Shown one piece after another: positions 1 to 17,688 of a stretch of DNA of 32,000 bases. The DNA is from Candidatus Arsenophonus nilaparvatae str. Hanzhou (GTDB lineage Bacteria > Pseudomonadota > Gammaproteobacteria > Enterobacterales > Enterobacteriaceae). A program made the translations under genes and the position numbers. Position 1 is the stretch's first letter. Every line of letters starts with the position of its first letter. A model generated the notes under the pieces. That model ran no database searches. It saw only the letters and a program-made list of their open reading frames with translations, and was not told the origin of the DNA. The stretch is from assembly GCF_000757905.1 (NCBI RefSeq), contig NZ_JRLH01000018.1. One strand, given 5' to 3'.

Positions 1-162
1 AAAAAATTACACAAATTAAGTTTAAAAAAATAATTTTTTAATAAAATAAACATTTTACAAATATTTATGACATTTAAATATACCTGGTAATTTTGGTGTG
101 TTAAATACTCTATCATACCATCAACTTGTAATAGAGATTGTTCCTAACAATAGGGGTTTTAT

Positions 163-843
163 ATGAAAAAAAATAAAATAATTATTAAATTTAACCAAGA
201 TGTTATTCAATCTAGAAAAAATAATAAATTATTATTAAAACCATTAGCTTTACAAAATCAATTATTTAACCAATTTATTTATATTCCTGTCGTACCTGAT
301 GATATATTACAAACTCAAGGTCAAATAAATAACATTAATTTTGCTAGCCTCAGTGGCATGTTTTATATTAAAGGATCGGAATCGCTACTTCCCAACGAAA
401 AACAACAATTATTAAAAGCGATTAACGGCTATGACTTTATCGAATATGCTGAACTAGAATGCACACAACTAGCCTCATCAACTTTGTCAGGTTCTGAACA
501 ACTAAACGATACCGAAACACCCGATTTTACTAAATTACAAGAATACAAATTAGGCATAGGAGAACTATGGACAGGCATTGATATGGAATATGCTTGGTCT
601 CTTGGCGTAGCAGGTAAAGGTATCCGTATTGCTGATATCGAGGCAGCTTTTAATTACCAACATATTAATTTGAAAAGAGACAATTTTATTCCACTGGTTG
701 TCAGCGATGATAACGATGAGTATGAAATTAATCATGGTACGGCCGTAGCGGGTGTTATGTATGCAAAAGATCTGGCCTTTGGTGTAAAAGGAATGGTACA
801 TGATGCTGATGCACTTTATGTACAATGCCGTTATGTTGAATAG
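163..843 (+). pseudogene. S8 (subtilisin-like) serine protease, N-terminal fragment severed by prophage insertion
   Basis: 226-aa ORF with a catalytic Asp box (GKGIRIADIEAAF) and His box (HGTAVAGV) but no Asn or Ser box. The last codons (CRYVE-stop) run into phage-derived dif-like DNA. The missing Asn and Ser boxes are at 9312-9989. Confidence 0.8.
815..841 (+). other. attL: hybrid dif-like site (host XerC-side arm TTTATGTACAA, then phage central TGCCG and XerD-type arm TTATGTTGAAT)
   Basis: TTATGTTGAAT matches the E. coli dif XerD arm TTATGTTAAAT (recalled) at 10/11. The host-side arm is a poor XerC arm (6/11 against the phage arm GGTTCGCACAA). Confidence 0.6.
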
Positions 844-873
844 CCGTCTGCGAAAATATCTCCTCGCAGACGG
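844..873. repeat. Perfect hairpin (10-bp stem CCGTCTGCGA / TCGCAGACGG, 10-nt loop) lying between the two inverted dif-like sites
   Basis: The inverted repeat was read directly. It sits at the apex of the proposed attP forked hairpin. Confidence 0.85.
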
Positions 874-878
874 CGGCC

Positions 879-906
879 ATTTATACATAACGCTATTGTG
901 CGAACC
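879..906 (-). other. Inverted dif-like site (second attP half): the reverse complement reads GGTTCGCACAA-TAGCG-TTATGTATAAAT
   Basis: 896-906 (TTGTGCGAACC) is the exact reverse complement of the XerC-type arm at 9312-9322 and in every 52-bp repeat. The XerD-type arm resembles TTATGTTAAAT with one extra base. Confidence 0.65.
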
Positions 907-944
907 TGCGGTTATGTCGATCTAGGTAGCCTGACTTGACGCTA

Positions 945-985
945 AGTCCAAATAGGGGGTTTTTGATTAGTGGAACAACCGCAAT
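945..985 (+). other. Putative (+)-strand replication origin / gpII nicking region
   Basis: AGTCCAAATAGGGGGTTTTTGATTAGTGGAACAACC resembles the f1 origin core as I recall it (GAGTCCACGTTCTTTAATAGTGGACTCTTGTTCC). Shared elements are AGTCCA, a T-run, and A(T)TAGTGGA. It lies in the non-coding region upstream of the replication module. Confidence 0.4.
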
Positions 986-1188
986 ATCGAATTTATCAGG
1001 TTCTGGTAACAATTCTCTACTTATCAATCACGAGTTTCGCACCAATAAAAAAACGCTCTATTTTTACGTCTAATTCAGCATAATATATAAATAGAAAAAA
1101 TCTCATAAATTAAAAACAACTTATTGTAATTTAAGTAAATTTATACCTCTTAGTAAGTTACAGGTTAATCATTGTTTTGACGCCATTT

Positions 1189-1422
1189 CTAGAATTTTAT
1201 ATGTCCGTGCGAAACTCGTGTCAATGCGGGAAGTTTTGTATCTTCAAAATAGGCTACTTCAAGATTATCCGTATAAATAAGCATTCCAAACTCATTTTCT
1301 CTCATTGTCACAAAGCGGCGATTAACTGTATTAAACAGGGTATAACCGATAACGTCAGGGTTATTTTTTCTAAATTCAATTTCTAGTTCTTTTAGTTGTT
1401 TTATTATTTTTTTCTTTTCCAT
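1189..1422 (-). CDS. Hypothetical 77-aa phage protein, downstream of the repressor on the same strand
   Basis: The ORF has protein-like composition (MEKKKIIKQLKELEIEFRKNNPDVIGYTLF...), whereas the overlapping + strand ORF 1177-1386 looks like junk. The RBS is weak and no family was recognised. Confidence 0.45.
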   Translation of the reverse strand: MEKKKIIKQLKELEIEFRKNNPDVIGYTLFNTVNRRFVTMRENEFGMLIYTDNLEVAYFEDTKLPALTRVSHGHIKF

Positions 1423-1459
1423 TTACATTAGCCATTTGTTAATTAAATGTTACATAATC

Positions 1460-1491
1460 AAGAGTACATGACTCTTTAATTATGTACTCTT
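1460..1491. repeat. 10-bp perfect inverted repeat AAGAGTACAT ... ATGTACTCTT (12-nt spacer) between the repressor gene and the 77-aa ORF
   Basis: Read directly. A GCGGA/TCCGC mini-hairpin follows at 1494-1504. This could be a terminator, an attenuator or an operator. Confidence 0.5.
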
Positions 1492-1528
1492 GTGCGGAAT
1501 CCGCATTATTTTACATATTTTATTATGT

Positions 1529-1861
1529 TTATTGATTTTTATTTAACATTTCTTCAGCTTGATTTATCAGACTCATACCTTTACTTATTTTTTTGATTAC
1601 TTCTTGATCTTCTAATGGCAAGTTATTTATTACTTTTATTAAATAATTAGTGTCAGTTGATTTTTTATTATAGATAAGCTCATCAACTGAACAATTTAAA
1701 GCGGTGCTGATTGCGATAATTGATTGAATAGTTGGATTTTTTTGTTCATTTCTTTCTATCTTTGATAATTGAGAGAATGATATTTGTGTTTTTTCGGCTA
1801 ACTCTTCTCTAGTCATTCCTAAAGCTTCTCTCCTTGTTCGTATATTATCACCTATAGCCAT
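1529..1861 (-). CDS. XRE/Cro-CI family HTH repressor (RstR-like position, divergent from gene II)
   Basis: 110 aa. Canonical XRE HTH: IRTRREALGMTREELAEKTQISFSQLSKIERNEQKNPTIQSIIAISTALNCSVDELI. Confidence 0.85.
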   Translation of the reverse strand: MAIGDNIRTRREALGMTREELAEKTQISFSQLSKIERNEQKNPTIQSIIAISTALNCSVDELIYNKKSTDTNYLIKVINNLPLEDQEVIKKISKGMSLINQAEEMLNKNQ

Positions 1862-1916
1862 AAAAATTCTCTCTTGTGAGTCATTTATAGAAATAATAAC
1901 TTATTTATGAATAGTA

Positions 1917-1951
1917 AGTTGACTATTTAAAGATAGTTGACTATATATAAT
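1917..1951 (+). promoter_or_regulatory. Candidate gene II promoter with two direct AGTTGACTAT repeats (possible repressor operators)
   Basis: AGTTGACTAT occurs at 1917-1926 and 1935-1944. TTGACT (1919-1924), a 17-nt spacer and TATATA (1942-1947) form a sigma70-like promoter in the divergent region. Confidence 0.4.
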
Positions 1952-1979
1952 CACTATTAGTATTCATAGAGTGGTTATT

Positions 1980-3263
1980 ATGATTGATCTTCTTGAGCTT
2001 CAGATTCCATTTAAAGATGAGTATGTGATGAGAACATCTCGTGATAGGGAGCATGGAGGAGGCTCTATCGATTTTATGCAGATTGCTAAATTAAGTGGGG
2101 TTCGGTTGTCTGCTCGTGATGTGGAATTTGAAATAAAAGGGGATTTATCTGTTCAGGGATTAGCGCATCCTTTTGAATCGTTACCAACGCATTTTGCCAG
2201 TTTGGGCATGAAAATTTATCAGGGAACTCATTTGATTTTCCCGCGTGTCAATCTTAAGGCTTCACCCGCCAAGCTCTTACAGGGGCATAATGTATTTGGT
2301 TCAACCAATATTGCATTATGTGGCTTGGAGTTAATGACTAATTTAGCGGTTTCCATGCCACATCTTTTTAATTTGTTAGATGTCGAGAATAGCGAAGTTT
2401 CTGAGCTTCATACAACGTTATCAGTAAGATTACCAACGGAAAGTATTTGTAAGCAGGTGATTGCTTATTTTAAGAATATCAGTCATGGACAAACCAAAGC
2501 CACGAAATCAAACGATCATGAATCCACCGTTTATTTTAATCGTGGTTCTAAACACAGGGAATTGTGTATTTATTACAAAGCGCTTGAACTGGCAAAACGT
2601 TTTGGTGAAATACAAAGAAAATTACGGGTTAATCCCAATGATGAGGTGTTGCTTAATCAGTTTGCGATTTTAAATAATAAACGTTTGACGGATTTTGCCA
2701 ATAACCTGTTGAGATTAGAAGGGCGATTAAAAAAACGTTTTTTAAAAGATAATCAGATTCCGATTAATTTTTCTGCGCTTTGCCTTTATCAACAACAATA
2801 TGAACGTAGTGGGGCTAATTTAATTTACGATCTGTGGATGAAAAGTTTTGATGATTTGTTGACGGCACTGAGGGGAATGGAAATGAATATTTATGATGAC
2901 GAACATATTTTTGAACGATTAAAATCTCATTATTATTCTACCACGCCAAAAGGCAACATTTCCTATGCTAAAGCTCAACGGATATTTGGTTTTTATCGTC
3001 GTTTAGTTAATGAAGGTTATTTAAATGTTTTTAATTCTCTGGCAAGAAGAACATTTTATGATAATTTAACTTTATTAACGAATATTGGCCTCAGCAAATC
3101 ACAATTACAAAATCTCACCGGCGATAAATCTAACGTCATTCCCTTTTATAAAGTTATCCATATCGATTTTTCTCAACAACGGCCTGACTGGTATGTCGAG
3201 CCAGTGAGTGTTTTTGAACGTCAGAATACTATTTATCCATTTAAACAAGTTGCAAACGCTTAA
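1980..3263 (+). CDS. Ff-type replication initiator/nickase gpII
   Basis: From ATG 1980 the product starts MIDLLELQIPF. It shares long colinear blocks with M13/f1 gpII as I recall it: SARDVEFEIKGDLSVQGLAHPFESLPTH, KASPAKLLQGHNVFG, ISHGQTKATKS, MNIYDD, FGFYRRLVNEGY, QRPDWYVEPV. The track start GTG 1971 is less likely. Confidence 0.9.
   Translation: MIDLLELQIPFKDEYVMRTSRDREHGGGSIDFMQIAKLSGVRLSARDVEFEIKGDLSVQGLAHPFESLPTHFASLGMKIYQGTHLIFPRVNLKASPAKLLQGHNVFGSTNIALCGLELMTNLAVSMPHLFNLLDVENSEVSELHTTLSVRLPTESICKQVIAYFKNISHGQTKATKSNDHESTVYFNRGSKHRELCIYYKALELAKRFGEIQRKLRVNPNDEVLLNQFAILNNKRLTDFANNLLRLEGRLKKRFLKDNQIPINFSALCLYQQQYERSGANLIYDLWMKSFDDLLTALRGMEMNIYDDEHIFERLKSHYYSTTPKGNISYAKAQRIFGFYRRLVNEGYLNVFNSLARRTFYDNLTLLTNIGLSKSQLQNLTGDKSNVIPFYKVIHIDFSQQRPDWYVEPVSVFERQNTIYPFKQVANA
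2883..3263 (+). CDS. Nested in-frame gene X analogue (C-terminal 126 aa of gpII)
   Basis: An internal in-frame ATG (MNIYDD...) sits at the position homologous to the M13 gene X start. It is preceded by GAGGGG (2870-2875) at a 7-nt spacing. ATG 2877 is an alternative start. Confidence 0.45.
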   Translation: MNIYDDEHIFERLKSHYYSTTPKGNISYAKAQRIFGFYRRLVNEGYLNVFNSLARRTFYDNLTLLTNIGLSKSQLQNLTGDKSNVIPFYKVIHIDFSQQRPDWYVEPVSVFERQNTIYPFKQVANA

Positions 3264-3283
3264 ATCAAGAAAGGTGAACCATT

Positions 3284-3577
3284 ATGGCTGCATTGCCCTT
3301 ATATCAAACAGTGATTAGTGGAAAAGTGACCCGTATCAGTACGTCTAATGATGGACATGTTTATACCACCGTTATTTTACCCGCACCTGATCCTTATTCT
3401 AAACCGCCGGTTGTAAAAATTCGTTCTAAACGGCGTGTGGGGGCGATTGATTCAGAAGTGAATGAATTGGTTTGCCGAATTTCCGGTTTTGAACGTTCGT
3501 TTAGATATCACGATAAACAGACAGGGCAACCCTTAACGGGGCATAACGTTGAAATGTTTCTCGATTTAGTGGAATAG
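3284..3577 (+). CDS. Putative ssDNA-binding protein (gene V position)
   Basis: 97 aa, with RBS AAAGGTGA, immediately after gII as in Ff phages. Size and basic composition fit. I see no direct similarity to M13 gpV. Confidence 0.45.
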   Translation: MAALPLYQTVISGKVTRISTSNDGHVYTTVILPAPDPYSKPPVVKIRSKRRVGAIDSEVNELVCRISGFERSFRYHDKQTGQPLTGHNVEMFLDLVE

Positions 3578-3586
3578 GTGATCGCT

Positions 3587-3811
3587 ATGGCTACTCCGGA
3601 AAATAATATTGTCGGTGAGATTTGTTCGAAAGTCACGAATGACTGCCAAACTATTGAATTGACGATAAAAGAGTTGCCATATCAGGAACTCCTTAATATT
3701 GATTATTCAGTCGCGGCACAATTTTGGGGGATTCCTTTTACCTCGGTAATCGGACTTTGGTTATTTTCCAAAGGTCTTGGTGCAGTAATTAATATGTTTA
3801 AAGGTGTTTAA
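3587..3811 (+). CDS. Small membrane protein, candidate minor coat protein (gVII/gIX position)
   Basis: ~74 aa from ATG 3587 (RBS AGGTGA 5 nt upstream). C-terminal hydrophobic helix IPFTSVIGLWLFSKGLGAVI. It lies between the gV-like and gVIII genes. Confidence 0.4.
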   Translation: MATPENNIVGEICSKVTNDCQTIELTIKELPYQELLNIDYSVAAQFWGIPFTSVIGLWLFSKGLGAVINMFKGV

Positions 3812-3813
3812 TT

Positions 3814-4095
3814 ATGTTGACTAAATTAGGTTTAAATAAGTTTTTTAACAAACTTAATCTACGCACTTTATATTTAAGTGTAGGTATTGGTTTATTCGGT
3901 GCTTTTAGTTCTGCAATGTCATTTGCAGAAGCCGCAACAGGGACAGGTACGGCTATTGATTACACGCAATTAACGAACTCCCTTAATTTTAATTCTGTCA
4001 TGACGGGTATTTTAGCCGTTGCAGGCGGTCTGATTGCCGTTTATGCAGGCATGGCAGGCGTTAAGTGGGTTTTACGTATGGTACGTGGTGCGTAA
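3814..4095 (+). CDS. Major coat protein (gVIII-type)
   Basis: A signal peptide ending SFA/EAATG is followed by an acidic N-terminus, a hydrophobic core (VMTGILAVAGGLIAVYAGMAGV) and a basic C-terminus (KWVLRMVRGA). This is the classic inovirus major-coat architecture. Confidence 0.75.
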   Translation: MLTKLGLNKFFNKLNLRTLYLSVGIGLFGAFSSAMSFAEAATGTGTAIDYTQLTNSLNFNSVMTGILAVAGGLIAVYAGMAGVKWVLRMVRGA

Positions 4096-4114
4096 CAAGG
4101 AGAGGGGCAAATTA

Positions 4115-5665
4115 ATGCCCCTTTATATCGATGCTGACAATCGGATTTTATTTTCTGTGTTTTTTGTGGGGGCTGTTATGTGCCTGGGCAGTCATACAAG
4201 GGTTGGATTGATATATTTTTTCTATTTTGCCGTTTTATCTGTTTTTTATCCTGTTTTAGTAAGCGCAAGTTCTATTGCTGTTAATCATTCACTGTCTAAT
4301 AAATATCCATTTTATGCTTACGAAAATAGTCAATATTATGAGGGTCATGATAGACGTTCGATAGCATTACGCGCGTTTGAGGATGAGAAAGTAAAAAAAG
4401 CCGGCGTGGTTTATTGTATGCCTTCGCGTTCTTGCAAATTTAAAAAAATCACTTCGATTTCTGATGTGGGTATTTTTAATAATGTTCGGGTGGATTATGT
4501 GGGTACAATTATTGGTGGTTTAGGTGATACATTAGAAGGCGCAGGATTTTATACCGTTTCAGTTCGCGAGAATGATAATTTTGATAAATCTAAATCGGAT
4601 GATGCAATTGAAAAATCCACTCCGGAAGAAATTTGTAAGAAGAAACCGCCTTTATCCGGCTCTCAAAGTGGCGTTAGGAGTATTTCAGGTGAACGTTATA
4701 TTTATGTTGACGGTTGTGAGTATATAGCCACGGGTGATGTGCTTATTTGTTTTGATAAAAGCGATATTTGTAATGCAACATCTTGGAAACCGACAGGGGA
4801 AGTAGCAGAAGGTAAAGGTTATGGTAAAACGAATAATAACGATGAGACGACGTTAGCCCATTCCTTTTGTGCGTCTCAGTATGGTACTTATGGCTCGATT
4901 GGCTCTTCAGATGAGTTTGTTGTGACGGACAGATGTAAACCCGTTTTTAAAGAGGATAAATTTTTAGGTTGGGTGGGTAGTGGTGCTTATTCTGATATGA
5001 ATAATCCGCCTGATTTTCCTGATACGGGAATATTTAGTGTTGTACCTAATCCCGATTATGCCATTTCAGATTCGGCTTCTGCTAAAGATAAGGTGGAATA
5101 TAATCTTAATTATTTAGCGCTTCATCCTGATTTGGATTTAGCTAGATATCCGTTACCTGTTTATTCTGATTTACCGCTTTCTTCACCGTCAGGGAGTGGT
5201 TCAATAAATTTAGGGAGTACAGCCCATTCCGTTGATGCAGGTTCGAGTATTGCAGGAAGTTTAGTGAATACCGAGAGTGCCACGCATTCATTGTCTTCAT
5301 CCGGAACCAGTCAATCGGGTGTCAGTTCATCTTCGGGTGCTTCTTCAAATTTTGGGCAATCTTCTGGTTCAAAAGGTAATGGTCAGGGAACCGATTTATC
5401 GCATCCCGATAATAATGAACCGGATTTAGATTCACCCACCGCAGAATCGGTATTATCGCCATTACAGAATCTCTTTCCTTTTTTGAAAAATTTTAATTTA
5501 CCAGAACGAGCAGCGTCATGCCCAGTAGCGACTTTTGAGGTGTTTGAGCAGCATTTTGTCATTGATGCTCATTGTACCTTGTTTGAAAGCATTCGTGGTT
5601 TGTTAACCCTGTTTTCAATGATTATCTGGTCATTTCTGGGATTACGGATTGTATTGTCTTCTTAA
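4115..5665 (+). CDS. Adsorption / minor coat protein (gIII-type)
   Basis: ~516 aa from ATG 4115 (RBS AGGAGA). Cys-containing N-terminal domains are followed by a long Ser/Gly-rich linker (SSPSGSGSINLGS...SSSGASSNFGQSSGSKGNGQG) and a C-terminal membrane anchor (LLTLFSMIIWSFLGLRIVLSS). Confidence 0.7.
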   Translation: MPLYIDADNRILFSVFFVGAVMCLGSHTRVGLIYFFYFAVLSVFYPVLVSASSIAVNHSLSNKYPFYAYENSQYYEGHDRRSIALRAFEDEKVKKAGVVYCMPSRSCKFKKITSISDVGIFNNVRVDYVGTIIGGLGDTLEGAGFYTVSVRENDNFDKSKSDDAIEKSTPEEICKKKPPLSGSQSGVRSISGERYIYVDGCEYIATGDVLICFDKSDICNATSWKPTGEVAEGKGYGKTNNNDETTLAHSFCASQYGTYGSIGSSDEFVVTDRCKPVFKEDKFLGWVGSGAYSDMNNPPDFPDTGIFSVVPNPDYAISDSASAKDKVEYNLNYLALHPDLDLARYPLPVYSDLPLSSPSGSGSINLGSTAHSVDAGSSIAGSLVNTESATHSLSSSGTSQSGVSSSSGASSNFGQSSGSKGNGQGTDLSHPDNNEPDLDSPTAESVLSPLQNLFPFLKNFNLPERAASCPVATFEVFEQHFVIDAHCTLFESIRGLLTLFSMIIWSFLGLRIVLSS

Positions 5666-5677
5666 GGGGATTAAGTG

Positions 5678-5965
5678 ATGTATGCCTTGATTGTATCCGC
5701 ATTTAATTTTTTATTAGGGTTCGTTTTTAGAACGCTGGCCATTAAATTTATTGTGTTTTCGGCGCTGTTTTTAGTGGTTACTGAATTTGTCCCCGTTTTA
5801 TTAGCTTTACTACCCACGTCAACGAATTTGCCGGAGTTGATTGGTCAACTGCCTGATAGTGTCTGGTATTTTATGAATCTGTTTGCCGTGATAACGGGGA
5901 TGAAGATTGTGATTTCGGCTTATCTGACCCGTTTTATTGTGCGCCGTATTCCGGTGATAGGGTGA
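5678..5965 (+). CDS. Hydrophobic minor coat protein (gVI-type)
   Basis: ~95 aa, multi-helix hydrophobic protein located between the gIII and gI analogues. RBS AAGGGGA. Confidence 0.6.
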   Translation: MYALIVSAFNFLLGFVFRTLAIKFIVFSALFLVVTEFVPVLLALLPTSTNLPELIGQLPDSVWYFMNLFAVITGMKIVISAYLTRFIVRRIPVIG

Positions 5966-5968
5966 TGT

Positions 5969-6826
5969 ATGGCGATTTCAGCTTATGTCGGTATTCCAAG
6001 AAGCGGTAAATCTTACGAAGTAGTTTGTAACGTTATTATTCCGGCTTTTATGAAAGGTCGCCGGATTGTGACGAATATCTACGGCATTTCAGCAGAAAAA
6101 ATCAGGGTTTATTGTCTTGATAAAAAGAAAGCCGATGAATATCAATTAGGTGAGATTATCTGCGTTGATAATGAACAGGTTAAAAAGGCTGATTTTTTTC
6201 CATTTAAAACAGAAACGGGTATCGCAGAAGACACCTTTTGTCAGGCAGGTGATTTAATTTGCATTGATGAAGCGTGGCGAATTTGGGAAAACGACAAGAT
6301 ACCGCAACAACATCGCTCATTTATTGCCGAACATGGTCATTTTGTTAATATAGAAGGTGTTACCTGTGATTTAGTGGTATTAAATCAGTCGGTGGCTAAT
6401 TTACCGCGTTTTATCAAAGACCGGATTGAGACGACGTATAAAATGACCAAATTGGTGGCGTTAGGGTTACGTCATCGCTATCGGGTCGATGTTTATTCAG
6501 GGATTAAACTGTTTAAAAATAATCGCACTTCATCTTATCAGTGCAGTTATGACAAGGTGATTTTTCCACTTTATCATTCTTATGAAGGGGGGCAAGGACA
6601 AGAGCAGGTGGTGGATAAGCGCCAGAGTATTTTTAATCAATCTAAATTCTGGTTATTAACATTAGGACTGTTGTTGCTGGTCATAGCCTCCGTTTATTTT
6701 CTTTATCAATTTTTTGGTGGTAACGGGATAACGCCCAAAAATCGGCCTGTCTCTGAATCAGTTGATAAATCAGTGACTACCCAAAAATCACATCAAAATC
6801 CGTCGCCACAAAATTTATCCACTTAA
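5969..6826 (+). CDS. Zot/gpI-like assembly ATPase (gene I analogue), ending at an in-frame TAA (6824-6826)
   Basis: N-terminal Walker A (GIPRSGKSYEV), an ITN motif (RRIVTNIYGI) as in Zot, a Walker B-like CIDEAW, and a single TM (FWLLTLGLLLLVIASVYFLYQFF). At 285 aa it is shorter than gpI/Zot. Confidence 0.8.
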   Translation: MAISAYVGIPRSGKSYEVVCNVIIPAFMKGRRIVTNIYGISAEKIRVYCLDKKKADEYQLGEIICVDNEQVKKADFFPFKTETGIAEDTFCQAGDLICIDEAWRIWENDKIPQQHRSFIAEHGHFVNIEGVTCDLVVLNQSVANLPRFIKDRIETTYKMTKLVALGLRHRYRVDVYSGIKLFKNNRTSSYQCSYDKVIFPLYHSYEGGQGQEQVVDKRQSIFNQSKFWLLTLGLLLLVIASVYFLYQFFGGNGITPKNRPVSESVDKSVTTQKSHQNPSPQNLST

Positions 6827-6997
6827 TGGCGTATTGCGGGCAAAATTAGTCAGCGTGGTCAGGCGTGGGTGGTGTTACTTAATCAGCAGGGGCAGATTCG
6901 ACTTGAGCCATTATCGCAGTTTCGTTTTTATGGTTTGCGGATGACGGGCAACATTGACGGTGAGGTTGTCACAACCTATTCGGGAGGCATGAAATGA
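6827..6997 (+). other. Same-frame continuation of gene I after the TAA (56 sense codons), ending at a TGA that overlaps the gene IV ATG
   Basis: Hand translation gives WRIAGKISQRGQAWVVLLNQQGQIRLEPLSQFRFYGLRMTGNIDGEVVTTYSGGMK-stop, with stop 6995-6997 overlapping ATG 6994. The combined length (342 codons) approaches M13 gpI (~348 aa). Confidence 0.7.
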
Positions 6998-8211
6998 AAA
7001 GGGCATGGATAGGGGTGTTGTTAACGGTAAGTCCCTTGTTAATGGCTAAAGGCGTGATGATGGAACTGGATAACGTGCCTTTACCGCAAGCGTTGAATGT
7101 GCTTTATCGACAGGTTTTTGAACGTCCGTTTATGTTATCGCCAGAATTAATCAATGACCCTCGTAAAGTGACTTTTCGTATTACGCCAGAAATTGATGAA
7201 CGGGCTTTTATTAAGCGTTATTTGAATAATTTACAGATTGCCATTCATGAACGTAATGGGATTGATTATTTAGTTTTTTTTACGCCAAAAACACCCACAG
7301 TAATCAGGGAAACCTATGTTTATCAGCCCCGTTATCGCTCAGTATCGTATTTATCGGATTTATTACGCAGCCAGTTTGATGGTAATTTTAATTCGTCTCG
7401 TAGTGGTATTTCAGTGGGGCAAATCGCACCAGAAAAAGCCGTGGCGGGGACGGCTTCGGATTTTCTGAACCGGACAGGGGATGTACTGGTTTATTATGGT
7501 ACTAAAGCCGATATTGCCCGATTAAAAATATTGTTACCTAAAATCGATACTGTAACGGATGAAGTGGTGGTTTCTGCCTATGTCTTTGAGGTACAAACCG
7601 CTGAGCGTAATGGGTCAGGCTTGGCATTGGCTGCCAAATTGGTTTCCGGTAAATTTAATGTTGGTATCGGTAAAGAGGCAGGATTTGATAATTTTGTTCG
7701 CTTTAATTTAGGTTCATTAGATGCGTTATATGAATTGTTCCGTACTGATAGCCGTTTTCATGTGGTGAGTTCACCTAGATTAAGAGTGAAGAATGGGGCG
7801 CAGGCATCATTTTCTGTCGGCTCAGATGTGCCTGTATTAGGTAAGGTAAGTTATGCTGATAATAAGCCTGTCCAGTCGATAGAATATCGCTCTAGTGGGG
7901 TAATTTTAAATGTACGTCCGCAAATCCGGCAACAGGGTGTTGATTTAACCATTGACCAGCAATTATCAAATTTTGCTAAAACTGAAACGGGTGTCAATAA
8001 CAGTCCAACGTTGATTAAACGCCAGGTCAATACGCAAGTGAGCGTTGCCGATGGTGATATTATTTTGTTAGGCGGTTTGGCTGAAAATAAAGTAACCGAA
8101 GCGGATACCGGATTTTCGTTTTTGCCGAAGGGCTGGTTTACCAGTGCTTCGACAGAAAATAATAAAACCGATATTTTAGTGATTTTACAGGTGAAGAAGG
8201 TTCAACGATGA
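6994..8211 (+). CDS. Secretin (gIV-type phage export channel)
   Basis: 405 aa with a signal peptide. The C-terminal secretin domain contains VVSSPRLRVKNGAQASFSVGSDVPVLG, GVILNVRPQI and VSVADGDIILLGGL. Confidence 0.9.
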   Translation: MKRAWIGVLLTVSPLLMAKGVMMELDNVPLPQALNVLYRQVFERPFMLSPELINDPRKVTFRITPEIDERAFIKRYLNNLQIAIHERNGIDYLVFFTPKTPTVIRETYVYQPRYRSVSYLSDLLRSQFDGNFNSSRSGISVGQIAPEKAVAGTASDFLNRTGDVLVYYGTKADIARLKILLPKIDTVTDEVVVSAYVFEVQTAERNGSGLALAAKLVSGKFNVGIGKEAGFDNFVRFNLGSLDALYELFRTDSRFHVVSSPRLRVKNGAQASFSVGSDVPVLGKVSYADNKPVQSIEYRSSGVILNVRPQIRQQGVDLTIDQQLSNFAKTETGVNNSPTLIKRQVNTQVSVADGDIILLGGLAENKVTEADTGFSFLPKGWFTSASTENNKTDILVILQVKKVQR

Positions 8212-8215
8212 AGGC

Positions 8216-8252
8216 AGGCAGCGTACCACAGCGTTAGCGAGGAACGCTGCCT
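8216..8252. terminator. Hairpin after gene IV (9-bp stem AGGCAGCGT/ACGCTGCCT, 19-nt loop containing GCGTTAGCG)
   Basis: Read directly. No T-tract follows, so it may be structural (packaging or minus-strand origin) rather than a terminator. Confidence 0.35.
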
Positions 8253-8414
8253 TGCATGAAGAGGCAAACCGACGTAGCCGGTAAGAAAATAGAACGCCGG
8301 TTTTGTTGTATTACATGTTGTTTGTTAAGCGTTAAGTTATTTTTTTTGGCGCTGTATAGCCAGACTCCATATCTGACTACACAGCTATCACATAAACCTT
8401 ATAAGGAGGTCTAT

Positions 8415-8693
8415 ATGACTGTGTTCGATCCTACTCAATATCCAGAGTTACGCAATCTTTTTCCTGAATTAACGCCAGTGCAGTTTGAAACGGCACTGTT
8501 ATTTGCTTTTGGTATTCCACAAAAAGAAATCTCAGTGTTGCGTTCAGTGGCGTATAAAGTGGTGAGACAGACGATAACAGAAGCCAGAATGAAATTTGAG
8601 CCAGCGTCATTGACGGGATTATTAACGGTATTTCATGTTCGTTTAGTGTTATTTGCTTTGTATGATAGCCAACAACGCATTCGTAAGACATAA
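8415..8693 (+). CDS. Small LuxR/GerE-type HTH protein (92 aa)
   Basis: Strong RBS TAAGGAGG 6 nt upstream of ATG 8415. LTPVQFETALLFAFGIPQKEISVLRSVAYKVVRQTITEARMKF resembles the LuxR C-terminal HTH pattern (LTxRExExLxLxAxGxxxKEIAxxLxxSxxTVKxH). The upstream extension from 8256 is unlikely. Confidence 0.55.
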   Translation: MTVFDPTQYPELRNLFPELTPVQFETALLFAFGIPQKEISVLRSVAYKVVRQTITEARMKFEPASLTGLLTVFHVRLVLFALYDSQQRIRKT

Positions 8694-8707
8694 AAAAGCG
8701 GATTAGT

Positions 8708-8739
8708 CTAGGTGCGTTAAATGCACCTAGGGTATTTTA
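8708..8739 (+). terminator. Rho-independent terminator after the LuxR-like gene
   Basis: 8-bp stem CTAGGTGC / GCACCTAG, 7-nt loop, followed by GGTATTTTATT. Confidence 0.6.
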
Positions 8740-9120
8740 TTCGATGAGATAATATCGATTTGGTATTAGGTCATAACTTCTAAAATTAATCGTAAATACC
8801 GCCACTTCTGATTTTGAGTCGCATCACACCATATCAGGGAAACCCGCTACTTTTATGGCGGGCTTTTTTTATGTTTTAAAATGTCCGTCAGGACATGTAA
8901 GGCGGCAGATTGAAATCGCAAAGATAACCGACTGCAAAACCGCCGAAGCCAGGGGGGGACTTATCGGGTAGCAAGGAACCCCCGCGTTAGCGTTCCTGCC
9001 AAGCCATCTTTTTACGATAAATAAAGCGACTCAGCAGTTTGAGGGTCGAAGACAAGCGAATCGTTTAGCGACAGATTGATTTTTTTATTTGCTTTTGTTT
9101 ATTGTTTAATTTCATGCTAA

Positions 9121-9322
9121 CTCAATAAAATTAATATTCCGTAAAATGCCATTAAGGTTCGCACAATATTTACTCAATAAAATTAATATTCCGTAAAATG
9201 CCATTAAGGTTCGCACAATATTTACTCAATAAAATTAATATTCCGTAAAATGCCATTAAGGTTCGCACAATATTTACTCAATAAAATTAATATTCCGTAA
9301 AATGCCATTAAGGTTCGCACAA
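9121..9322 (+). repeat. Tandem array: 3.9 perfect copies of a 52-bp unit, each ending in the XerC-type arm GGTTCGCACAA
   Basis: The unit is CTCAATAAAATTAATATTCCGTAAAATGCCATTAAGGTTCGCACAATATTTA, at 9121-9172, 9173-9224 and 9225-9276. The fourth copy starts at 9277 and diverges after ACAAT into host DNA. Confidence 0.95.
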
Positions 9323-9339
9323 TGGTATTTCTGTTAAAC
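9312..9339 (+). other. attR: complete dif-like site GGTTCGCACAA-TGGTAT-TTCTGTTAAAC
   Basis: 11-6-11 architecture. It matches E. coli dif (GGTGCGCATAA-TGTATA-TTATGTTAAAT, recalled) at 9/11 in each arm. The XerC arm is phage/repeat-derived; the central region and XerD arm lie in subtilase coding sequence. Confidence 0.7.
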
Positions 9340-9989
9340 CTTATGATGCCGCAGGCGGGATCATAAGAGGATTACAACATTTAAGAGCGGGTGATATTTT
9401 TATTTACGAATTATCTATCCAATCCAAACCAGATGATGATACAACTCAAGTACCTGCTGATTATTGCCAATCGGTCTGGGATATCACTAAAGCGGCCACC
9501 GATGCCGGTATTATTATTATTGCTGCGGCAGGTAATGGCAGTGAAAATCTGGATGATGATTATTATGCACAATATCGCGATCGCGGTGATAACGGCGCTA
9601 TTCGGGTTGGTGCTGGCTCTAAAAATCAAATATGTCGTTCATTTTCAACTTATGGCAAAACGATGATCCATGTCCAGGCCTGGGGTGATAGTGTCGTAAC
9701 AACCGGCTTTGGTACTTTATACGATGGTGGTCCTAATAATAATTATGCTAGTAACTTTGATGGCACCTCAGCCGCTACCCCAATTGTAGCTTCAGCAGCA
9801 ATTGGCATTCAATCATGGTATAAACAACAGACTGGCCAGGTTCTCACACCACGTGAAATGCGAAGTCTGTTGATAGAGACCGGCACACCACAACGACCTG
9901 GTTTTATCAATAACCATATTGGACCGCTGCCAAATGTTCGTAATGCAATTAATACATTACAACGACGTTTACAACAACAAAAAGCATAA
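9312..9989 (+). pseudogene. S8 serine protease, C-terminal fragment (Asn and Ser catalytic boxes)
   Basis: The frame of ORF 9663-9989 is open upstream to 9312 (stop TAA at 9309-9311). Hand translation: GSHNGISVKPYDAAGGIIRGLQHLRAGDIFIYELSIQ...GIIIIAAAGNGSENL (oxyanion Asn box)...FDGTSAATPIVASAA (Ser box). The first 4 codons are phage-arm-derived. Confidence 0.8.
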
Positions 9990-10093: not shown

Positions 10094-10794
10094 CCATGTT
10101 TAAATGTGAAAAAATTAAAAGTTATTGATTAATATTTAAGTTAAGCTGTCAATTTAGCGCAACGAAAATAATTAGAATGATGGCTGATTAACTTTGAAAA
10201 CAATAAATAAAATATCAGCATAAATATTTGTTCAAGTAAAAATCACTGTAGTTAAAAATATTGTTTTCAGCATCTTTTTATTTCTTAGAGTGAATATAAA
10301 AATGCCGTCATTAAAAATATATTAAATAATCTTAATAAAGTGCCTAAAATTACTATAAAAATAAATTATAGTGATGTGATTTATCACACCTTAATATATT
10401 TATCAACAAGACTAAGAGGATACCTTTCTTCAACTAGATAAATTTAAAGCATTTTGAAGAATAACTTCAACACTATTTTCTACCGAATAACACAGCTTAT
10501 TAGTTTTCCCTTTTCTATGAGCTATCTTTCCAGATCACAAACCCAGTTTTTTCATTCTATAATACATTTCCCCTTCAAGCCTTTTTTTAATTAAACTGAA
10601 TCAACATATTCATGGCATTAAATTACATTATTTATACATTTATTTTGTAATAATTAAAAATAAATGTATGAATTATTATATTTTTACATATGAAAATTTA
10701 ATACAATTAAATTACATACTAATTTATAGTTAAAAATAAAATATTAAAAAATACATATATTATTTTCAGATATTATACCAAGGGGAAATTGGTT

Positions 10795-11574
10795 ATGCCT
10801 AAAATTGTTTCTGTATCCCATTATCCAGCTACTATCTTAAAAGATGATGCAGCTAAAAAAACTAGCACTGATGATATGTTAGCGAAACTATATCCCGACT
10901 TAACCATGCAATTTGCCAACCCATCATCAATGAGAGTTAAACATGATAAACTAGCAACAAATAGTGACCGATTACATGCATCTGCAAAAATAAAGTCTTT
11001 GTTCATATCTGGTGCCGGTAGACATGATCCTGATAGAGCCATAAATCAGCAGCAACAAATAAGATGCGAACATGCTCTATCACATATCATGGAATCTGCC
11101 TACAACAAGAGCCCGACATTTAGACGGTTATTTAATTATGGTTATGACAATATTCTGCATGATGGTGGTTGGGTATTAGCCGCAGATGAAGATTTTGGCA
11201 CGACTATCACATCCGAACAGATAGCAGCGACTAATGGTAGAAAAATTATTTCATTAAATATGGATCCTATTGATGAGCCAGATTCTTATAATACTTACCA
11301 AACAGAAAACGGCAGTCATACCCCTTTTAGTTTAGCTCGTTCATTTATGCATGAAGTCGTGCACGCTTTAACAATGCTTCCCGATAAAGATGGTGAACAT
11401 GAAAGAGGACCTGTTGTCGAATATACAAATATCATACTTAAAGAAATGGGTGATAACCAACCAGCAAGATTTAAATATGAATTAGACGATAATTATCATG
11501 ATATAAACCAAGGAAATACACCTTTCACAATAGAAACATTTGAATTACCAATTTTAACATACACACCAAAATAA
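10795..11574 (+). CDS. HExxH zinc metalloprotease, effector-like (possibly NleD/M91-like)
   Basis: ~259 aa from ATG 10795 (RBS AAGGGGA). It has the motif FMHEVVHAL and a downstream Glu-rich segment (DGEHERGPVVEYTNIILKEMG). No signal peptide. The gene is isolated between ~800 bp and ~250 bp of AT-rich non-coding DNA. Confidence 0.6.
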   Translation: MPKIVSVSHYPATILKDDAAKKTSTDDMLAKLYPDLTMQFANPSSMRVKHDKLATNSDRLHASAKIKSLFISGAGRHDPDRAINQQQQIRCEHALSHIMESAYNKSPTFRRLFNYGYDNILHDGGWVLAADEDFGTTITSEQIAATNGRKIISLNMDPIDEPDSYNTYQTENGSHTPFSLARSFMHEVVHALTMLPDKDGEHERGPVVEYTNIILKEMGDNQPARFKYELDDNYHDINQGNTPFTIETFELPILTYTPK

Positions 11575-16839: not shown

Positions 16840-17688
16840 CTAAGCGGCATTCTTTAGTTCATGATATTTTTGATGTGGCGTTAAATAACCAATCGTTGAA
16901 TGGCGTCGATAATAATTATAAAACTGAATGTAATTTTCAACTTCATAGACAACAGATTGATGATTCATAAACGATAAATGGTTAAGCTTTTCTGTCTTTA
17001 AACTCCTAAAAAATCTTTCCATCACGGCATTATCGAGGCAATTACCTCGCCGACTCATGCTTTGAGTTATTTTCCGTTCAAAGAGGTGCGCCCTAAACTC
17101 CTCCGATGAATATTGGCAACCTTGATCTGAATGGAACATCAAACTTGTCGTATCCGGTAATTGCCGTTCAATGGCGTTATCTAAGGCTTCTTTCACTAAT
17201 TTCGTATCCGGTTTTGTTGATAAGGCATAACCAATAACTTCTTTGGTGGCTAAATCTAACACGCAAGCTAAATAGCTCCACCCATAGTGATATCTAATAT
17301 ACGTGATATCACCGACATAATAGTGATTATGCTGTTGAGGGGAAAATTGTCGTTTAAGCAAATTAGGGGCATATCGATGTTCGTTACCCGATGAGGGATA
17401 GTAATGCTTTTTCGTTGGTCTAATTGCAACTAATTGATTTAATTTCATGATGTTTGATATTTTATAAGTGCCAATCTGGCACCCTAAACCCTTTAACTCA
17501 GCTTGGATACGTCTTTTGCCATAAGTTTGGCCCGATGTATAAAAAATACGTTTGATTTCGCCACACAGCCTTTCATTTTCAACTGTCGGTATTTTCGTTT
17601 CATAATAAAAACTACTACTGCTTACTTCAAAAAGATGGCATAACTCAGTGACCGTAAAATTGGGGTACATAATTTTCATTTGCTTCAC
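16840..17688 (-). CDS. IS3-family transposase OrfB (DDE/integrase core), expressed as an OrfAB fusion by -1 frameshift
   Basis: Motifs HSDQGCQYSS and GNCLDNAVMERFFRSLKTE are present. The -1 frame is open from the slippery site (17736) through this ORF; hand translation gives KKSRGLLHPRQSKLKIVKQMKIMYP. Confidence 0.85.
   Translation of the reverse strand: MKQMKIMYPNFTVTELCHLFEVSSSSFYYETKIPTVENERLCGEIKRIFYTSGQTYGKRRIQAELKGLGCQIGTYKISNIMKLNQLVAIRPTKKHYYPSSGNEHRYAPNLLKRQFSPQQHNHYYVGDITYIRYHYGWSYLACVLDLATKEVIGYALSTKPDTKLVKEALDNAIERQLPDTTSLMFHSDQGCQYSSEEFRAHLFERKITQSMSRRGNCLDNAVMERFFRSLKTEKLNHLSFMNHQSVVYEVENYIQFYNYYRRHSTIGYLTPHQKYHELKNAA

Follow-up and report, generated by a model that had tools for sequence, protein, structure and literature searches.

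CTXphi, the cholera-toxin inovirus of Vibrio cholerae, carries two inverted dif-like sites in its attachment region, attP1 with a spacer of 12 nt and attP2 with a spacer of 5-7 nt. XerC, which cleaves at the boundary between its arm and the central region, alone performs the strand exchange that integrates the folded single strand. Two other inoviruses, CUS-1phi of E. coli K1 and YpfPhi of Yersinia pestis, also have an inverted XerC/D pair, tandem copies and variable genes next to attL. Here we describe a prophage in a 32,000-nt stretch (the window) of contig NZ_JRLH01000018.1 from Candidatus Arsenophonus nilaparvatae str. Hanzhou, a brown-planthopper symbiont. The element is an 8,504-nt inovirus prophage (819..9322, plus strand), identified by its Pfam and PHROGs gene content, by an empty site in a related genome and by a tandem junction in a closed genome (L070), and it splits the gene of an S8 serine peptidase. 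It has no recombinase of its own, and we consider it probable, judging from the sequence of its ends and targets, that it enters through host XerC/XerD in the CTXphi manner.

To define the ends of the prophage, we compared the interrupted gene with uninterrupted versions. Seven full-length protease homologues (at most 92% identical) read ALY|GIS across the insertion point (...DADALY|GISVKPYD...) and do not have the VQ encoded by codons gta caa. The orthologous, syntenic A. apicola locus is empty and has the sequence GCTGATGCACTGTATGGCATTTCGG, reading GCACTGTATGGCATTTCGG across the insertion point (L007). Removal of 819-9322 restores the reading frame, whereas removal of 826-9322 does not. Since the homologues, the A. 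apicola empty site and the restored frame agree, the insert is 819..9322. The initial annotation had placed the left boundary at 826, which is wrong, because TGTACAA at 819-825 is phage and not host DNA. This puts the exchange point between 818 and 819, give or take 2 nt (AT) that both sides share, and in comparison with the A. apicola empty site the insertion has produced no target duplication.

The split peptidase gene is represented on the plus strand by a 5′ portion at 163..818, known from the list of open reading frames (ORFs) and its translation, and by a 3′ portion at 9323..9989, which is in frame from 9324 according to its translation and the homologue alignment. The ORF of the 5′ portion continues into phage DNA up to a stop at 841-843. 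Joining the two portions gives the pre-insertion site GATGCACTTTA-TGGTAT-TTCTGTTAAAC, which agrees with the dif consensus at 6 of 11 XerC-arm positions (GGTTCGCATAA) and at 9 of 11 XerD-arm positions. When 82 kb of Arsenophonus DNA are scanned, a combined similarity of this level is reached at a fraction of only 5.5e-5 of the positions. The pseudo-dif target lies inside the gene, which the insertion has split.

Both halves of the attachment site remain at the left end. The host XerC-arm-like half of the pseudo-dif target, GATGCACTTTA (808..818, plus strand, defined by the A. apicola comparison), is followed by the phage left end, a 12-nt spacer or extended central region TGTACAATGCCG (819..830, plus strand). 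Next comes the XerD-arm-like sequence of the split site, TTATGTTGAAT (831..841, plus strand), which matches TTATGTTAAAT at 10 of 11 positions and is unchanged in the related loci L005, L006 and L008. An inner hairpin occupies 843..874. Its segment 844-873 has a perfect 10-bp stem (CCGTCTGCGA / TCGCAGACGG) and a 10-nt loop, AAATATCTCC, and the stem reaches 11 bp once the pair G843-C874 is counted. An inverted dif-like partner site lies on the minus strand at 879..906; it consists of GGTTCGCACAA (896-906), TAGCG (891-895) and TTATGTATAAAT (879-890), so that the reverse complement is GGTTCGCACAATAGCGTTATGTATAAAT. At the right end, the phage XerC arm GGTTCGCACAA (9312-9322) is joined to the host central region TGGTAT (9323-9328) and the host XerD-like arm TTCTGTTAAAC (9329-9339), forming attR, a 28-bp hybrid Xer-type site on the plus strand (9312..9339).

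Most of this anatomy was already seen correctly in the initial annotation, which had reported TGCCGTTATGTTGAAT at 826-841, the 10-bp hairpin at 844-873, the inverted site at 879-906 and the right end at 9312-9322, together with the asymmetry between a left end with two inverted dif-like sites and a right end with nothing but a XerC arm. The left end thus has a host XerC-like arm plus both attP halves, and the right end has the phage XerC arm joined to the host centre and XerD arm. Such an arrangement is the product that would be expected from a CTXphi-type exchange by XerC alone. Allowing one mismatch, the window contains five copies of GGTTCGCACAA where chance predicts 0.39, a count that 0 of 100 shuffles reached, and all five sit at the prophage ends. 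The XerD-arm motif by itself is not enriched in the AT-rich window (6 found, 4.6 expected), and so the evidence is the arrangement of the sites, not this motif.

We then compared the window with CP158507.1, the closed 3.10-Mb Ca. A. nilaparvatae chromosome, which was reached via the truncated protease ORF and is 99.97% identical to window positions 1-9219. In this chromosome, the prophage copies are 8,400 nt long and contain two fewer units of a 52-bp repeat than the window copy. They form two-copy tandem arrays at three loci. The window has one prophage copy, which may reflect a collapsed assembly. The tandem junction reads ...CCATTAA GGTTCGCACAA TGTACAATGCCG TTATGTTGAAT AG CCGTCTGCGA AAATATCTCC TCGCAGACGG CGGCC ATTTATACATAA CGCTA TTGTGCGAACC. 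The corrected boundaries predict just this sequence for a circular-type junction. The circular junction proposed at first, GGTTCGCACAA-TGCCG-TTATGTTGAAT, is therefore replaced by GGTTCGCACAA-TGTACAATGCCG-TTATGTTGAAT. Consequently, the split site has a spacer of 12 nt (TGTACAATGCCG) and the inverted partner one of 5 nt (TAGCG), which brings the phage closer to attP1/attP2 of CTXphi (12 and 5-7 nt) than the 5/5 model of the initial annotation.

The three loci of CP158507.1 show three different targets. Locus A (0.83 Mb) is the window locus in the S8 protease gene, with the target GATGCACTTTA|TGGTAT|TTCTGTTAAAC. Locus B (1.27-1.29 Mb) has the target AATTCGCATAA|TATTTA|TTATGTTAAAT with host genes on either side, and locus C (1.55-1.57 Mb) has ATTTCTTATAA|TATTTA|TTATTTTAAAT within tailed-prophage DNA. 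Locus B closely matches AATTCGCATAA TATATA TTATGTTAAAT of another Arsenophonus genome and fits Enterobacterales dif sites generally. By its sequence, locus B is a canonical dif, while loci A and C are pseudo-dif sites. The host dif that the initial annotation wished to compare with the phage arms is thus available as AATTCGCATAA-TATTTA-TTATGTTAAAT. The phage of the window occupies a dif look-alike in a protease gene, and the same phage sits at the true dif in the closed genome.

The junctions at these loci follow one pattern. Every left junction consists of the host arm followed by TGTACAATGCCG TTATGTTGAAT (at the three loci and likewise in L005), and every right junction consists of GGTTCGCACAA followed by the host central region and the host XerD arm. 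TGTACAATGCCG therefore stands after three different host arms, and it also stands after the phage XerC arm at each tandem junction. The crossover always falls at the boundary between the XerC arm and the central region, at the three loci, at all tandem junctions and in the window. The phage and target central regions have a T or TG in common beside the cut, which fits the published rule that compatibility is decided by pairing next to the XerC cut.

These junctions bear on the idea that the phage was inserted by illegitimate recombination, or by a transposase or integrase whose gene lies at another place in the genome, and that the dif-like sequences are incidental. The window and its relatives are rich in insertion sequence (IS) elements, and the protease target has a weak XerC-like arm, as this idea would allow. 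Against it, the phage has no recombinase gene, and there are neither target-site duplications nor terminal inverted repeats. Moreover, the three independent targets are all dif-like, with an identical register and crossover point, and one of them is a canonical dif. We regard such an origin as extremely improbable.

Next, we folded the corrected 99-nt junction as single-stranded DNA. The predicted structure has an energy of -29.9 kcal/mol (z -7.9), a stability that none of 200 shuffled sequences reached. All 11 positions of the XerC arms are paired; in the XerD arms, the inner six bases are paired and pairing further out is imperfect. Most of the 12-nt spacer bulges out across from the 5-nt spacer, and the 11-bp hairpin forms the cap. 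The initial annotation had proposed a perfect XerC-arm duplex and an imperfect XerD-arm duplex, both of which are retained in this fold, around a mismatched centre of TGCCG and TAGCG, which is replaced by the 12-nt and 5-nt spacers. Its expectation of a stable structure was also right, although the structure is one continuous bulged hairpin rather than a fork. The insert between the two sites is 37 nt instead of about 90 nt, and it contains a single coaxial 11-bp hairpin.

The rejected junction, GGTTCGCACAA-TGCCG-TTATGTTGAAT, folds well too (-34 kcal/mol), but it is ruled out by the empty site and the tandem junction. It looked plausible because the GTACAAT of the spacer is a near-copy of GCACAAT at the end of the XerC arm, and this near-copy probably misled the placement of the boundary. 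With GTACAAT in the spacer (819-830) so similar to the arm end (9316-9323), the integrated left end can pair in a shifted register, at -21.9 kcal/mol.

A related phage on the A. nasoniae plasmid pArsFIN2 (L008) has an unsplit junction, which lies directly after phage right-end DNA and reads GGTTCGCATAA TATATAACACCG TTATGTTGAAT, followed by the hairpin. Its partner site on the opposite strand is GGTTCGCACAA TGGCG TTATGTGTAAAT, and the whole folds similarly (-26.6 kcal/mol, z -7.7). Among the Arsenophonus copies, the stem of the inner hairpin is invariant and the loop is variable. In the Enterobacteriaceae versions, the stem is one base shorter per strand and the loop is almost identical.

From this anatomy we propose the following route. 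In the circular plus strand, GGTTCGCACAA-TGTACAATGCCG-TTATGTTGAAT would lie 37 nt upstream of the inverted partner, which reads GGTTCGCACAA-TAGCG-TTATGTATAAAT on the opposite strand. Folding of this strand would give one long hairpin with perfectly paired XerC arms, imperfectly paired XerD arms, a bulged centre and a hairpin cap. XerC would cut after GGTTCGCACAA and exchange that one strand with a dif or dif-like duplex, which in the window would be the pseudo-dif GATGCACTTTA-TGGTAT-TTCTGTTAAAC of the S8 protease gene. Replication would then turn the intermediate into the prophage. Excision by Xer is not expected, because neither the 12-nt spacer of attL nor the 5-nt spacer of the partner is a usable 6-bp spacer. 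Integration would then be irreversible, with neither site expected to work as a duplex. New phage genomes would arise from rolling-circle replication across tandem copies, and such tandem copies are seen in the closed genome. We take the plus strand as the substrate since the cut site runs from the XerC arm to the XerD arm on the gene-sense strand, which in inoviruses is the packaged plus strand.

Several points weigh against this proposal. We infer Xer dependence, catalysis by XerC only and single-strand entry from the anatomy of the sites, and host xerC and xerD were not located, no search having been made for them. The XerC-like arm of the protease target matches only 6 of 11 positions. The complementary (minus) strand has an equally good fold (-30 kcal/mol), and the strand that is used can therefore not be told from folding. 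For the arm pairings we found no compensatory base changes, as each arm is either conserved or has changed without its partner. When seven attP versions were aligned with MAFFT and passed to RNAalifold, there was likewise no useful consensus and no compensatory pair, a failure due to misplaced indels in the alignment. In L006, pairing of the XerD arms is poor and the predicted fold is different. The partner site itself is odd, with its 5-nt spacer and a 12-nt XerD arm. Finally, the same prophage structure would result if XerC acted on the 12-nt-spacer site as a duplex.

This last point deserves attention, as XerCD might integrate the double-stranded replicative form via GGTTCGCACAA-TGTACAATGCCG-TTATGTTGAAT, similar to VGJphi, with the partner and hairpin serving another purpose or none. 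VGJphi also depends on host XerCD with a first exchange by XerC, in common with our reading of the Arsenophonus phage; attL and attR are exactly as an XerC-first duplex exchange would leave them, and the hairpin is without proof from covariation. However, a 12-bp spacer is reported to be unsuitable for duplex Xer recombination. VGJ-type integration is reversible and uses one duplex attP site with a 6-7-bp centre and two usable flanking sites, unlike the two inverted sites and the 12-nt attL spacer found here. Moreover, the partner, the spacing and the inner hairpin are kept across the Arsenophonus and Enterobacteriaceae relatives, whereas the loop and flanks vary. The duplex route is thus disfavoured only by analogy with the CTXphi experiments and by conservation of the partner site, and we judge it quite unlikely. 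The preferred reading remains the single-strand, XerC-catalysed entry.

In kind, the resemblance to CTXphi claimed in the initial annotation stands: both are inoviruses without an integrase, with inverted paired dif-like sites, and both are split at the XerC-arm boundary of a 12-nt site. In both, the left side of the prophage receives the two attP halves and the right side a regenerated 28-bp Xer-type site. Both also form tandem prophage arrays and have TG or T identity beside the XerC cut. The differences are the following. The sites of the Arsenophonus phage lie 37 nt apart in one structure with a coaxial 11-bp hairpin, compared with about 90 nt and a fork in CTXphi. It has a replication protein of the pII type known from Ff and IKe (about 45% identical), while that of CTXphi is RstA, which is distinct from the pII type. 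It is also found at pseudo-dif sites, one of them in a gene, and a 52-bp repeat multiplies its XerC arm. A more distant analogy is with integron attC sites, which are likewise folded single-strand sites with one strand exchange resolved by replication, but their recombinase is IntI and their sequences are unrelated.

The right end of the prophage consists of a perfect tandem repeat of a 52-bp unit (9120..9323, plus strand; 3.9 copies at 100% identity) with a XerC arm in each unit. The terminal GGTTCGCACAA at 9312-9322 is the last of four copies within this repeat, which the initial annotation had missed. The internal repeat junctions read GGTTCGCACAA-TATTTA-CTCAATAAAAT, in which TATTTA is the exact central region of the host dif and CTCAATAAAAT is a weak XerD-like arm (6/11). 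The number of units is 3.9 in the window compared with two in all six copies of CP158507.1 (L070 18991-19053; L079-L083). Either the repeat is a variable one generated by Xer, or the extra units of the window are an assembly artefact.

The composition of the repeat raises the possibility of a second route, present or past, through the internal GGTTCGCACAA-TATTTA-CTCAATAAAAT, in which case the hairpin site would not be the sole functional attP. This internal site is the only part of the phage that resembles the attP of TLCphi, with a good XerC arm, a dif-identical centre and a degenerate XerD arm. The six nucleotides after each internal XerC arm equal the host dif centre, and the unit number differs between assemblies (2 and 3.9), as would suit such a route, although the extra units of the window could be artefactual. 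A left junction of host arm, TATTTA and CTCAAT is present at none of the three loci, and no junction there uses the internal site. TLC-type integration is an XerD-started exchange with XafT/DUF3653; the junctions here are on the XerC side, and we found no DUF3653/XafT-like protein. A route of this sort is, in our estimate, unlikely, and entry through the folded hairpin site is the reading that we retain.

To place the phage among its relatives, we looked for its attP module in other DNA. Exact-pattern scans found neither the right end nor the hairpin in the viral contigs scanned, and a first metagenome scan was empty. With the partner site as the pattern, 55 metagenome loci were found, most of them in human gut samples. 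About 40 of the 55 have the order GGTGCGCATAA, an 11-nt spacer, TTATGTTGAAA, a hairpin and the partner site, and the partner XerC arm in these is identical to the Arsenophonus one. Around two dozen of the loci have inovirus genes related to those of the Arsenophonus phage, with identities that reach 71% for pIV and 62% for Zot, and at least nine close 7.9-11.9 kb downstream with a regenerated GGTGCGCATAA TGTATA TTATGTTAAAT. In E. coli SCU-101, the one complete genome examined, such an inovirus prophage is tandem and adjoins hipBA, which we take to be the dif locus as in E. coli K-12. In the same strain, the phage right end before the XerC arm, AGATTCTGCCATCCTTACCATT, resembles the host pre-dif sequence GGATTCTCCCTTGGTTTATGTT (L069 10960-10993 and 19393-19426), which suggests past capture or mimicry of dif-flanking DNA.

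The E. coli inoviruses integrated at dif have an attP module homologous to that of the Arsenophonus phage (about 75-77% identity over 78 nt), with an identical partner arm GGTTCGCACAA and similar XerD arms. They also have related structural genes, tandem arrays and variable cargo beside the partner site. They differ by an 11-nt spacer (TGTRCGACTCG), by an inner stem that is shorter and by an XerC arm of the host type, GGTGCGCATAA. A regenerated canonical dif closes each of the complete E. coli-type copies that we examined, and the pII of the Arsenophonus phage is divergent. The E. coli relatives appear tied to CUS-1 and YpfPhi by location, organisation and reviews, a link by description and not by sequence.

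Within Arsenophonus, some inovirus copies carry genes annotated as an EspA secretion protein and a pathogenicity island effector protein (L008 10205-11428, on pArsFIN2; L009 3627-4232). These genes are located between the attP partner site and the repressor, which is the variable slot of the cargo ORFs of YpfPhi and CUS-1. These plasmid copies are decayed and interrupted by IS elements. In L006, a contig of a metagenome-assembled genome of Arsenophonus sp. aDvar, the left part of the phage is joined to an inverted right part plus a dif-like site. The contig is internally rearranged, probably through misassembly across repeated phage copies, and we relied on it for its dif-like site only.

Homologues of the attP region, 78 nt long, are also present on Enterobacteriaceae plasmids. 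At least 29 such plasmids carry the module beside variable cargo, namely TIR-domain, STM4504-family or hypothetical proteins. The plasmid modules of E. coli, Enterobacter and Klebsiella (L010 9001-9078; L011, L012 and L013 3001-3078) have the same partner XerC arm as the phage, and the annotation of the retrieved flanks shows no inovirus genes. A 28-bp dif-like site (...TCTATC TTATGTTAAAT) lies 1.6-2.9 kb downstream in L011 and L012, that is, in two of the four plasmids examined. Hypothetical circular junctions of two plasmids gave no convincing XerC-arm stem, and we did not build on this fold.

Small elements of 1.9-2.7 kb in the gut-metagenome contigs L018, L064, L038 and L060 have an attP-type left end and a regenerated dif-type site, in which GGTGCGCATAA (or GGTGCGTATAA in L018) is followed by TGTATA TTATGTTAAAT. 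As they are too small to be phages, they may be satellites or cargo cassettes with the same entry route. A broader proposal is that Xer acts on the 52-bp-unit site in the duplex prophage, giving a variable repeat or a second, reversible route, and that the folded attP module is a portable end that moves non-phage cargo. We hold this combined proposal only tentatively, and think it rather doubtful. If true, Enterobacterales would possess a cassette system that depends on Xer and moves as single strands, and relaxed target choice would let that system insert within genes.

Scanning with Pfam and PHROGs, we find that the interval between the prophage ends holds a complete inovirus gene set. A repressor-like gene with an HTH_3 domain (Pfam PF01381, E 3.5e-17) lies on the minus strand at 1529..1861. 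The pII replication initiator (Phage_CRI plus G2P_X_C; 1971..3263, plus strand) is about 45% identical to its nearest deposited homologues, which come from IKe, Ff and Erwinia PEar phages. The structural and assembly genes (3284..8211) are all on the plus strand and comprise an ssDNA-binding protein (3284-3577), coat protein B (3814-4095), a pIII-like protein (4034-5665), a pVI-like DUF2523 protein (5675-5965), Zot/pI (5969-6826) and the secretin pIV (6994-8211). A phage-encoded integrase or transposase, which would have spoken against the use of host Xer in the initial annotation, is not found: integrase, transposase and XafT-like domains are absent from all scanned phage ORFs, permissive thresholds included, and DUF3653 has no match in the phage ORFs even at E<=1. 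DNA searches of the phage collection gave no match.

A candidate plus-strand replication origin and pII nick region, GACTCTTTAATTATGTACTCTTGTGC (1461..1500, plus strand), lies between a small ORF at 1189-1422 and the repressor gene. The evidence for it is weak: it is conserved in the related loci L001 and L002, and 19 of 26 positions match the f1 origin core.

Taken for its type, the phage is a new CTX-type Xer-exploiting integrative element (IMEX) of an Enterobacterales branch, with a mechanism that is itself already known. Three features set it apart without changing the kind of system: the compact unforked hairpin, the pseudo-dif targets including one in a gene, and the repeat that multiplies the XerC arm. 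With it, the single-strand Xer design of the CTXphi type reaches a heritable symbiont of insects, and by homology this design is common to the E. coli dif inoviruses. Since the same phage is found at the true dif and at two look-alikes, one of them in the protease gene, such phages can cause insertional mutations, and natural junctions can reveal the rules by which they choose targets. The host is culturable and transformable (PMC11491930), which makes the mechanism directly testable. The paper on the closed genome reports four prophages of 40-50 kb, and the inovirus is not described among its phage passages (PMC11491930).

Two other genes of the window lie outside the prophage. A PipA-family gene (10789-11574; Pfam E 1.3e-59) is located between the protease and an epimerase gene. 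It looks like a separate insertion beside the phage target, because the syntenic A. apicola region (L007) has a short gap without a called gene at this place. The other is an IS3-family transposase gene with rve domains (16840-17688). Many A. nasoniae plasmids carry copies of about 96% identity, and the gene has no connection with the insertion of the phage.

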